22,097 nt of DNA from Chthoniobacteraceae bacterium (GTDB lineage: Bacteria > Verrucomicrobiota > Verrucomicrobiia > Chthoniobacterales > Chthoniobacteraceae). Made by a program: the position numbers and the translations under genes. Location of the stretch: the NCBI GenBank assembly GCA_031409335.1, contig JANNWY010000019.1, positions 1-22,097 of the forward strand, given 5' to 3'. Positions 1-8,352 of this stretch are shown one piece after another; positions within the stretch are counted from its first letter, which is position 1, and each line of letters opens with the position of its first letter. A model generated the notes under the pieces. The model did not search any database. It saw nothing but the letters and a program-made list of their open reading frames with translations, and had not been told where the DNA came from.

Positions 1-138
1 TCGAGGAGCATCTGCAGGTTCACAATGCCGATCCCAAACCCATCCTTTGGACGGCCGCTGCCGCAGACATACTCGAAAAGGTTAAGCGGGGTCGCCGCAA
101 ACTCGATAAAGTGCAATCTGCTTGACGGACTACACTAG
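1..138 (+). mobile_element. Right end of an IS630-family insertion sequence
   Basis: The transposase stop is followed by CGGACTACACTAG (ends 138). ...CACTAG containing the TA target (136-137) is a characteristic IS630 terminus. Confidence 0.75.
3..125 (+). CDS. C-terminal end of an IS630-family transposase (5' part outside the window)
   Basis: Not in the ORF track. Frame from nt 3 reads EEHLQVHNADPKPILWTAAAADILEKVKRGRRKLDKVQSA* (TGA 123-125), matching the typical IS630 C-terminal HN..PKP..WT...IL.K..R motif. Confidence 0.85.
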   Translation, partial: EEHLQVHNADPKPILWTAAAADILEKVKRGRRKLDKVQSA

Positions 139-144
139 CGATCA

Positions 145-330
145 CCTGCTGATGCGCAGGATACGGCTCTGCTGGAGAGCACCCGGAGCGGCGTGTCAGC
201 CCAGCGGTTGAGCCTCGCTCAACGGCCCCGCGTCGCACGCCAGTGCGGCGTGGGGCTCCTCGTTTGGCGTGGGCCTCAACCCTGGCCCAAAGCGAAAAAC
301 TCCGGGGGGTTTGGGGGGCAGCACCCCCCA
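145..330 (+). ncRNA. Putative structured RNA (multi-stem, pseudoknot) in the transposase leader
   Basis: Stems 145-149/156-160, 165-175/201-214, 225-238/243-256 (14 bp, two G-U pairs), 270-275/284-289, 312-318/324-330. Long-range perfect pairing CCCGGAG 182-188 / CTCCGGG 300-306. Confidence 0.45.
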
Positions 331-374
331 AGTGGCGTGCGCAAAGCTCAAGGCTCGTCCAGGGGACGCGCCCT

Positions 375-1570
375 ATGCCCGAAAAAAACAACGTCAACTC
401 ACCCATCGTCATGCCCCGGACTTTGTCCGCCATCTGCTCGAACTCCACCGCTCCGCGACGCTCGATACTTCCCAGGCCCGCGAGCAGCTCGGCCTGAGCA
501 AAAGCCAGTTCCATCGCCTGCGCACCTCCTATCTCCTGGCCTGTGGCACCGGGGTGCAGGATCGCTGGCAGCCTCAGAGCAGCGGCGGCGCACGCCACCC
601 GCACTGGCCCGTGCCGGCCACAGATCTCGCACGCAAACTCCTCACCGCCGACCCGCCCGCTTCCTACAGTCTCACAGCCAGCGAACTCCAGCGCCGTCTG
701 CAGTTCGAGACCGATCGCTCCAGCGTGCGCCGCTGGGCTCGGGCCAACGGCTGCGAACTGCCCGCGCGCCCCCTGGTCCGGCGGGCCAGCGTCCGCCGCT
801 GGCAGCGCCAGAGCATCGGCGAGCTGTGGCAGATGGACGCCACGCCCCATGCCTTCGTCCCAGGCTGCGACACCAAGTGGCATCTCATCGCCATCATCGA
901 TGACTGCTCGCGCGTCGTGACCGGCGCGCGGCTCTATGAGCGCGAAGTGCTGCCGAGCTACTACCACATCCTGCCCCGCGCTTTCCTCCAATATGGGCTG
1001 CCGCTCGCCCTGTATGTGGACTACCACAGCTTCTTCCACACGCACACGCCCGATGCCCTAACCGAGCTTGGAAAGGCCCTGCACTTCTACGGAGTGAGCC
1101 TGCAGTATGCCTCCACACCCCAGGCCAAAGGCAAGGTGGAGCGCCTGCACCACTACTGGCAAAACCGCCTGCCAGCGCTCTTTGCTGCCGAAGCCATCAC
1201 CCGGATCGAGCCTGCCAACGCGCTGCTGGAGGAACTGCGCGAGCACCACAACAGCAGCGAAAACCACCGCGAACTGGACATGACACCGCAGCAAGCCTGG
1301 CAGCGAGCCAAGCGAGCCAAACGCAGTGTCCTGCGTCCGTGCAAACCTGATCCGTGGTGGCATTACGTGTGGAGCAGCCGCAGCAATATCCGTGTGGGCG
1401 ACGACGGGCGGGGGCCCATCGGCAGCCAGCGACTGCGCGTGAGTGCCGCCCCCCGCACGAGGCTCGTCCACTGCCTGCACACCAACGGCTCAGTCAGTAT
1501 CCTGACAAATAGACACTGCAAAACGGAGCGCCCGAAAATCCTGCTGCACGTCGGCCAGAAGCTCGACTGA
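375..1570 (+). CDS. DDE (rve integrase-core) transposase, IS481/IS1202 (ISNCY)-like; likely start ATG 375 needing a -1 shift at the A7 run (track start: GTG 269)
   Basis: N-terminal HTH-like segment (QAREQLGLSKSQFHRLR). Catalytic motifs WQMDAT, IIDDCSR, LYVDYHS, TPQAKGKVER. AGGGG SD-like site at 361-365. Confidence 0.85.
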
Positions 1571-1575
1571 CAACT

Positions 1576-1625
1576 CGTCCCGCTTTGAGTGCTACAAACC
1601 GTCCCGTTTTGAGTGCTACACGACA
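1576..1625. repeat. Right terminus of the IS481/IS1202-like element: two 21-bp direct repeats ending in ...ACA
   Basis: CGTCCCGCTTTGAGTGCTACA (1576-1596) and CGTCCCGTTTTGAGTGCTACA (1600-1620), 1 mismatch, then CGACA (1621-1625). TGT...ACA ends with repeated transposase-binding sites are typical of this group. Confidence 0.8.
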
Positions 1626-7290: not shown

Positions 7291-7437
7291 GAATTTCGCC
7301 CGCCGCTTCGCGGCACGAATTCACTGCGGCTTGTTTAGCCGCACGCGCAGGAATCCACCGGGCAAACGTTTCAGACGGCTCCGGCTTCGCCATTCCCAGA
7401 TGCTGGGCGATCTCGCGCGCCAGTCCGAGGTCACTAA

Positions 7438-8352
7438 GAAGTCGCGCAATAATAAACGGGTCAACTTGCGAAATCGGGGCACAGTGGCAGGATGCGAGCT
7501 GTGGACAGCGCAAGCGTTAAGACCAAGTATCAAAAGCTGGCACCGTTTCTCGACGAAAGGGCGCGGCGGGCTGGAGGGGAAAAACCACCCGGACCGCGCT
7601 GCGCAGTTTCGCCACATTAACGAAAAAATCGCGCGCTTTCACCAGATGGGAGCGCCCGCAGTATCCGTCGATACGAAGAAGAAAGAACTCATCGGAGTGT
7701 ATAAAAACGCGGGCCGTGAATATCATAAAAAAGGCGCGCCCCAGGAGGTGCAAGCGCATGATTTTCCAGACCCCAAGCTCGGCAAAGCGATTCCGTATGG
7801 CGTCTATGATGTGGGGGCAAACCAAGGCTGGGTGAGCGTTGGCGTCGATCACGACACCGCGGAATTTGCCACCGAGACGCTCCGGCGCTGCTGGGTGATG
7901 ATGGGCCGGAGGCGCTATCCCGACGCGAAAGAACTGCTCATCATGGCCGACGGCGGAGGCAGTAACAGCAGCCGCAGCCGGCTATGGAAAGTGTGCCTGC
8001 AAAAGCTGGCCACCGCCATCGGCTTGAAACTCACCGTGTGCCATTTTCCACCCGCGACGAGTAAATGGAACAAAATCGAACATCGGATGTTTTCTCACAT
8101 CACCCAAAACTGGCGGGGCAAGCCACTCATCAACCACGAAGTGGTGGTGCAACTCATCGGCGCGACCACGACCGGCAAGGGGCTCACAATCCAAGCCGAA
8201 CTGGATCCACAGCACTACCCGCTCAAGAAAAAAGTGACTCAACGTGAGTTGGAAGAAATTCAACTTTCGCGAGACGCGTTTCATGGCGAATGGAACTATT
8301 CCATCGACACAATCCTGCAGCAAAGCTGAACAGTTTATTGTTGCGCGACTCC
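7438..8352 (+). mobile_element. ISAzo13-family insertion sequence, internally deleted (915 bp)
   Basis: 20-bp terminal inverted repeats GAAGTCGCGCAATAATAAAC (7438-7457) and GTTTATTGTTGCGCGACTCC (8333-8352), 18/20 match. Flanked by a 3-bp TAA duplication (7435-7437, 8353-8355). Confidence 0.9.
7492..8329 (+). pseudogene. ISAzo13-family (Rhodopirellula-type DDE) transposase, broken by an internal deletion and frameshift
   Basis: N-terminus MRAVDSASVKTKYQKLAPFLDERARR (from 7492; this frame stops at TAA 7618-7620) joins out of frame at ~7570 to LEGKNHPDR..QF..SVDTKKKELIG..HDF..PYGVYD..DHDTAEFA..ADGGGSN..SKWNKIEHRMF..NWRGKPL. Confidence 0.88.

Follow-up and report, generated by a model that had tools for sequence, protein, structure and literature searches.

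The window considered here, the whole stretch of 22,097 nt that was analyzed, carries near its start a leader (139-374) upstream of a transposase gene, and the question raised by this locus is what the leader encodes and what it may do for the mobile DNA that bears it. The original prediction described a pseudoknotted non-coding RNA belonging to an IS481/IS1202-like element. Folding of the 139-374 segment does stand out from shuffled sequences, more so on the plus strand (z -4.18, 0 of 200 shuffles) than on the minus strand (z -2.96, 1 of 200). The proposed start at 139 is an artefact, because positions 1-138 (plus strand) are the right end of another IS, found 100% identical at seven contig ends with differing flanks. 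This foreign IS, which appears IS630-like by its end and its C-terminal peptide of 39 aa (without an NCBIfam hit), occupies the place expected for the promoter of the module described below, having inserted into the left end of an IS1202-family element.

The host element encodes an IS1202-family (ISTde1-like) DDE transposase (375-1570, plus strand, in an open frame of 269-1570), whose best NCBIfam match, ISNCY_2, scores 169.7 bits, below the cut-off of 250. The signatures IDDCSR and VERLHHYWQ in alignment A1 contain an extra DD and a Q seven residues after E. The right terminal repeats (1578-1625, plus strand) end in ACA and match the ends of homologues, whose left ends begin with TGT; the homologous elements show the TGT...ACA boundaries with internal repeats characteristic of the family. 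The remainder of the left end of the window's element was not found in its genome (G000), this end being unassembled. In register with homologues, positions 1626-1641 represent a presumed 16-bp target duplication, its left copy likewise unassembled, and a -35-like box (1642-1647) and a -10-like box (1666-1671) follow on the plus strand. Among 59 homologous insertions with a left flank, the duplication measured 16 bp in 31, 15 bp in one and was absent in 27. In the accessible part of its description, the ISTde1 subgroup of the IS1202 family has TGT ends, a 15-17 bp duplication and a DDE transposase with Q seven residues after E (10.1101/2022.12.17.520857); judged by these characters, the host element is a member of this subgroup. 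Transposase homologues derive mainly from records titled Verrucomicrobia. The target (1626-1643) matches part of a dispersed REP-like repeat found at about 20 places in the window's genome, often as inverted pairs, and an ISAzo13-family transposase gene lies elsewhere in the window (7331-8329).

Insertions of this clade have a characteristic flank. Across 73 distinct insertions (loci L001-L141), TTG occurs exactly 17 bases past the right end, directly after the duplication, in 57 (other flank positions: mean 1.6, maximum 6), and a -10 box is present 16-18 nt beyond TTG in 38 of the 73 (other windows: mean 5, maximum 11). The pattern indicates that this IS1202 clade targets the upstream edge of sigma70-type promoters, 16 bp before the -35 box, with or without the module. 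At the beginning of the transposase gene, the ATG at 375 is not in the transposase frame and precedes an A7 run (382-388); in 92 homologues, the ATG preceding the A-run was at +1 relative to the transposase frame in 67, at +2 in 15, in frame in none and unscored in 10. Such an out-of-frame start before an A-run suggests frameshifting or slippage right after the transposase start, and a -10-like box, often located 7-9 nt before the ATG (by eye), suggests a leaderless transposase mRNA. The words 'non-coding', 'hairpin' and 'frameshift' occur zero times in the main text of either IS1202 paper (10.1101/2022.12.17.520857, PMC10132070), and promoter targeting was not found in the available parts of these two sources.

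The leader itself was compared using 113 distinct core copies, an alignment of 49 rows (A3) and a close clade of 18 rows; the row L088, from the unpublished genome G455, is one row in A3, in A4 and in the counts, and no conclusion depends on it alone. GGATA-N-GGCTC was present in the leader of 52 of the 118 homologous loci with a transposase N-terminus. The RNA core is an irregular hairpin (148-200; all module features of the window are given for the plus strand) supported by covariation, and the covariance model R1 matches it with 68 bits as the single match in the window's genome. It comprises P1 (148-157/191-200; inner P1 paired in 98% of A3), a purine-rich internal loop AGGAYA/GAGCG (158-163/186-190), P2 (164-166/183-185; 100% paired in A3), a 3x1 loop C-N-(C/A)/A (167-169/182), and P3 (170-173/178-181; 196 of 196 cells, 100%, in A3) closed by a tetraloop starting with G (GGAG here). 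The core is followed by P4a (201-214), the variable pairing segment of the predicted RNA, which pairs with 272-285, and by an inner hairpin (225-256), which covaries in the close clade and is terminator-like in relatives, its T-run being weak in the window. Next comes P4b (272-285), complementary to P4a and forming the first part of a landing pad, with P4 paired in approximately 80% of A3. The module ends with the tail AAAGCG-NN-AAA-(C)TCC (289-303), in which GCG and AA are invariant in 49 of 49 rows of A3, and a G-rich hairpin (311-331), which closes the pad and has a 3-nt loop in most relatives.

In 59 core sequences, 98.6% of 590 cells are paired, with two-sided changes at 7 of 10 pairs, a covariation score reached by 0 of 500 shuffles, and pairing of 24-44% in slid registers; these figures are inflated by prior selection of the rows for paired P1 and P3, a selection that did not involve the pair 164-185. 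This pair is formed in 68 of 69 copies of a smaller set and in 111 of 113 copies, as C-G, G-C, G-U or A-U, and all 11 unfiltered exact-pattern loci show it together with a 4-bp P3. Position 182 is C in the window and A in nearly all other copies. The two loops of the core resemble the loop-E (UA/GA) and C-loop (C-N-C/A) RNA motifs. Loops of the G-rich hairpin have 3 nt in 49 of 58 called cases, 42 of them purine-N-A; for comparison, 27 of 110 inner hairpins likewise carry 3-nt loops. A variant retaining P2, the 3x1 loop and P3, with a different outer loop and tail, occurs at L231, L232, L233, L238, L255, L258, L262 and L273. P2, the 3x1 loop and P3 also occur alone in phage intergenic regions (L257, L259, L260, L261, L268, L269, L274), and this stand-alone inner hairpin is possibly a common protein-binding element.

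The fold originally drawn for the leader agrees with this architecture in part. In the close clade, the 14-bp stem 225-256 is upheld, with 242 of 252 cells paired and two-sided changes at 4 of 14 pairs, and the G-rich hairpin, placed at 312-330 and mapped here to 311-331, is real. Stems drawn at 145-160 (126 of 245 cells, 51%), at 207-223 (105 of 343, 31%) and, within 261-294, at 270-275/283-288 (101 of 294, 34%) do not hold in A3. Pairing of 165-175 with 201-214 is possible (383 of 441 cells) but incompatible with the better supported P3 and P4. The proposed long-range pseudoknot, 182-188/300-306, is complementary in the window's copy, yet it does not covary: 191 of 343 cells (56%) are paired in A3, the 18-row close clade has zero two-sided changes, and where 185 is C or T, just 1 of 18 scorable copies has a complementary base in the tail, as opposed to 164-185, paired in 111 of 113. 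A further candidate, an internal CTC/GAG pseudoknot, was rejected, being broken by CAA variants without compensation.

The module is not confined to the IS1202-like transposase to which it had been tied. A scan of 401 genomes from the window's phylum found its exact pattern in 7 (control 0), and a scan allowing one mismatch found it in 26 of 251 genomes of the phylum of G454 (control 4), 10 of the 30 loci listed there passing the structure filter. Model R1 matched 14 of 141 genomes of the phylum of G457, 1 of 141 of that of G456, 1 of 2 genomes of one class and 5 of 25 of another, as well as many viral contigs; repeat scans largely re-sampled the genomes of the first ones and are therefore not independent. 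Neighboring transposases belong to the IS1202, IS3, IS21, IS30, IS110, IS256 and ISL3 families, neighboring Reps to the Rep_1, Rep_trans and G2P-like types, and tyrosine integrases are also found nearby, so that the recurrence of similar segments beside several transposases, noted in the original prediction, proved correct. Relative to the gene, the module lies before it, behind it on either strand, or within it (L167). A simple regulatory switch acting in cis on transposase mRNA cannot be general, because the module frequently follows the transposase gene and is encoded on the strand opposite to it. An IS4 gene lies nearby at L190 and an IS701 gene at L176, and several copies have no mobile gene nearby. 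In the part of the source available, nine IS families are listed with circular intermediates, and all seven IS hosts of the module are among them (10.1101/2023.06.07.543989), a raw overlap in keeping with the priming role proposed below.

Plasmid searches yielded a single true carrier, HG796808; a Klebsiella plasmid match was due to chance, the window's own module had no blastn hit among plasmids, and a phage search gave chance matches only. Modules at L169, L286, L294, L296 and L300-L302 adjoin unrelated housekeeping genes, some between short terminal repeats, and are possible non-autonomous elements. At L167 (2055-3962), an IS21 istA gene contains an in-frame copy of the entire module, its promoter and an opposite-strand pad included, and at L254 (2560-4450) a group II intron is inserted into the T-run of the module's terminator.

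Comparison with Rfam 15 at the gathering threshold, a check proposed with the original prediction, gave no match in the window and none over the module at 14 other loci; the best weak match was Clostridiales-2 across the G-rich hairpin, with 20.8 bits against a threshold of 58.6. No published account of the motif was found by title or abstract, a search outside which most subscription journals lie; the supplement of PMC5737381, a source seen in part, may hold a related motif. Covariation, the promoter signal and the Rfam result support the earlier view of a conserved structured RNA or ssDNA element without a catalog entry, and the module is an uncatalogued putative structured RNA family spanning seven IS families and three Rep families.

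Transcription signals are associated with the core. A -10 box lies 21-29 nt before it (GGATA) in 85 of 110 copies, compared with a mean of 22 and a maximum of 34 in shuffled sequences and 14-31 in other windows, and 57 of those 85 have a -35 box 16-18 nt further upstream (shuffled mean 10), which places the predicted transcript start at the base of P1. Downstream of the core, a terminator-like hairpin was called in 55 of 110 copies, compared with 15 for the reverse strand and 6-13 for shuffled sequences. Since this hairpin is located inside P4, the predicted short RNA would contain the core and P4a, without P4b, the tail and the G-rich hairpin. The module is thus predicted to carry its own promoter-driven small RNA. 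Three of 24 listed runs, recorded as RNA, hold at least half of the words of element L105, which concerns the whole element and not a separate small RNA. In intact copies the -10 box starts 23-25 nt before GGATA, and the equivalent position in the window (134-136) lies inside the foreign IS. With its promoter place taken in this way, C at 182 and an inner hairpin not called terminator-like, the window's copy is probably a silent member of a working family.

The landing pad, comprising P4b, the tail and the G-rich hairpin, is separable from the core. In the 113 distinct cores, the tail was located downstream ('direct') in 87 and upstream on the opposite strand in 8, and none was called in 18, some of which are cut by contig ends or missed by the pattern. 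In direct copies, P4a pairs with its own pad at a mean of -19.8 kcal/mol, compared with -10.5 for dissimilar pads, and in 65 of 86 it pairs better with its own pad than with 95% of the dissimilar ones. For the 8 opposite-strand-pad loci, tested in a single register, 1, 27, 0, 10, 28, 6, 18 and 17 of 500 shuffles pair equally well; L286 and L294 were included, the truncated L301 and L302 (z -0.8 and -0.1 earlier) were left out, and four of the eight loci (L190, L286, L294, L300) are related. A cross table shows that the own pad is not the best partner for L188, L190 and L300. L286 and L300 carry pads on both strands; P4a differs between these two loci and both pads change along with it. L322 has a second pad 860 nt away, at the 3' end of rep, with P4b nearly unchanged.

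On a strand that bears a pad without a core, P4 cannot arise in cis, which leaves RNA from the other strand as the only partner, and with P4a-pad complementarity maintained across strands, the small RNA likely pairs with the pad in trans. At L167, L190, L286 and L300, the pad coincides with the template strand of the spacer in the module's promoter, where no opposing promoter was seen, and one pad sits within an ORF. Three-nucleotide purine-N-A hairpin loops are a DNA-type feature. Together, such loops in the G-rich hairpin and the pads on promoter-spacer template strands suggest a pad acting as DNA.

We propose, at somewhat less than even confidence, that annealing of the small RNA to a pad in displaced ssDNA helps to start second-strand synthesis. 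The promoter would drive a small RNA made of the core, P4a and the terminator; its P4a segment would find the complementary pad on a displaced single strand, on either strand; and the RNA would be trimmed, for example by RNase H, to become a primer, or would recruit host primase, PriA or RNA polymerase. The pad would act as DNA, and IS circles would need the module for their second strand. More tentatively, the module as a whole may be an RNA-guided single-strand origin with a fixed fold and a variable segment, usable on either strand and serving copy-out-paste-in IS and rolling-circle replicons across several phyla.

The arrangement in rolling-circle replicons is relevant to this proposal. 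The rep-sense strand carries the pad in HG796808, L152 and L153, at distances of 107, 88 and 118 nt, respectively, ahead of a motif resembling the nick site of pC194 or pT181. The rep-sense strand is the leading (displaced) strand of rolling-circle replicons, and the pad lies on it in L152, L153, L175, L319 and L322. In gut prophage-like contigs, the pad precedes a G2P-like rep. The larger contigs of this type (L305-L346) encode a G2P-like rolling-circle Rep and often have pads without the RNA core; a core is detectable in only 21 of 47 viral pad loci.

The leaders of IS1202 elements provide a second indication. The 69 complete leaders fall into 34 with the module, 20 with a long hairpin tipped GAGCG-N-AGCG, 9 with both and 6 that by pattern have neither, four of the last looking like worn forms by eye; module-free hairpin leaders include L002-L004, L067, L109, L129, L133 and L135. 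The hairpin-only label requires at least four changes on well-supported branches of a quick-search tree. ColE1 has the tip GAGCG-N-AGCG as well, some 135 nt behind its origin, and one like it is present in the phiX174 F-G spacer, both being places where primosome assembly sites lie. Exchange of module and hairpin, together with the likeness of the tip, makes the two leader types look interchangeable. Primosome assembly sites are known in phiX174 and ColE1, according to the available part of the source (PMC5778457); the likeness concerns this alternative leader class (20 of 69 leaders), not the window's module.

Several observations count against priming. The tail is direct in 87 of 95 copies in which it was called, and there a DNA helix P4 formed in cis would be a competitor of the RNA. 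Pads on the opposite strand are rare, and several of them belong to related loci; at three loci the own pad is not the best partner. The 3' end of the predicted RNA would be an unpaired flap requiring processing. The low share of viral pad loci with a detectable core, the IS4 and IS701 genes near two loci, the loci without a nearby mobile gene, and the 3-nt loops that also occur among inner hairpins weigh on the same side. The pad of IS30, IS1202 and G2P-Rep copies immediately precedes a start codon, which fits mRNA control.

The last point leads to the most probable alternative, in which the small RNA pairs with the pad as RNA, in transposase or rep leaders or in read-through transcripts, and sets translation, termination or decay. 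Besides the position of the pad before start codons, the overlap of the terminator with P4 and the resemblance of the core loops to RNA motifs speak for such control. ISPpu9 provides small RNAs of a similar kind, Asr9 and Ssr9, in the part of the report available (PMC12288879). We nevertheless regard this alternative as unlikely, since in the IS3, IS21, IS110, IS256 and ISL3 copies the pad frequently lies at the 3' end of the transposase gene in antisense orientation, and neither the pads on the template strand of the promoter spacer nor the pad inside an ORF fits it.

Somewhat less probable again is a plain single-strand origin, in which the module would fold in cis as ssDNA and be read by host RNA polymerase or primase, the promoter being part of the signal and the free RNA incidental. 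Cis folding is possible in the direct copies, many pads persist without a core, and known single-strand origins adopt promoter-like structures, as described in the available part of PMC4595007. On the other hand, opposite-strand and double pads remain complementary to P4a, the terminator-like signal is strand-specific, and the -35 and -10 boxes lack a complementary fold-back arm (by inspection).

A ribozyme, with core and tail forming an active site that cuts or joins the pad strand, appears improbable. The helix order P1-P2-P3-P1'-P4-joiner-P2' recalls HDV-like ribozymes, unpaired bases of the core and tail are invariant whereas P4 is variable, and a possible GGA/YCC pairing would clamp the tail between two arms. 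HDV-like ribozymes have a 7-bp P1, an L3 loop with P1.1, and a catalytic C joiner. The module has a P1 of about 10 bp and neither L3 nor P1.1, and its tail can be found on the other strand, which lowers the HDV-like reading; moreover, no Rfam ribozyme matched, GGA/YCC shows no two-sided change on inspection of the alignment, and the predicted transcript begins at P1, leaving nothing to cut off. We give equally little weight to a selfish or anti-host passenger RNA riding mobile DNA with no replication role: L286, L294, L296 and L300-L302 lie beside unrelated genes without a nearby mobile gene, one copy sits inside the istA frame, and hitchhiking has been proposed for Ssr9 (PMC12288879, available part), but the module's constant location ahead of nick-like sites and its interchange with PAS-like hairpins suggest that it serves the host element. 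Finally, a bridge- or seek-type guide RNA directing the transposase to its target, the role in target choice envisaged in the original prediction, is largely refuted and very improbable, despite a structured RNA at an IS end and the unusually long target duplications of the host family, because identical leaders occur at unrelated targets (L093/L094, L033/L034) without any match of variable loops to insertion targets, module-free elements make the same 16-bp duplication at the same type of site, and the module is common to unrelated enzymes.

Second-strand priming by a trans-acting RNA, the reading we prefer, has a close parallel in ColE1 RNA II, a promoter-made structured RNA that initiates synthesis by pairing with the DNA of its own replicon, with a G-run and a primosome site nearby; the words GGATAAGGC, GAGCG and AAAGCG occur in RNA II in the same order as in the module. 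The module's predicted RNA would differ in being about 100 nt long, terminated, capable of pairing with either strand, and carried by IS and rolling-circle replicons. Model R1 run over ColE1 RNA II with filters off gave no match, the two sharing short words only. Priming through an RNA-DNA hybrid as in RNA II is predicted here from trans-complementarity. A G4-type primase origin was rejected, with no R1 match and no likeness by eye to the G4 complementary-strand origin. Single-strand origins (ssoA/U/T/W/L, ICEBs1 sso1) share the rolling-circle leading strand, the folding and the proposed job (PMC4595007, PMC5703833), whereas their primer, in the available parts of these sources, is made on ssDNA by RNA polymerase or primase, and the module predicts a separately transcribed RNA with a covarying segment. 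GEBRO, ARRPOF and PAGEV are also complex structured motifs near plasmid origins, as RNA or ssDNA, GEBRO lying between sso and dso (PMC5737381, seen in part); they are plasmid motifs, unlike the module with its seven IS families and no Rfam match at the gathering score. The IS110 bridge RNA or seekRNA and ISPpu9 Asr9 and Ssr9 are likewise small RNAs in non-coding ends of IS (PMC12288879, PMC11187229, both in part), whereas the module lacks target-matching loops, is associated with several transposases, and has its partner site inside the element. In its action the module would thus resemble ColE1 RNA II or an sso, yet homology tests fail for RNA II, the G4 origin and all Rfam families.

The second strand of circular IS copies has been little studied, and the rolling-circle priming routes described in the available parts of the literature cited above all make the primer on the template. 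If the proposal is true, a trans-pairing small RNA with a re-programmable pad would represent a further priming route and a compact, portable origin. Promoter targeting, in turn, offers a testable answer to the question of target choice in the long-duplication subgroup. Even if the proposed mechanism is wrong, the module would remain an uncatalogued putative structured RNA family associated with seven families of IS and three of Reps, and one amenable to tests by defined mutations.
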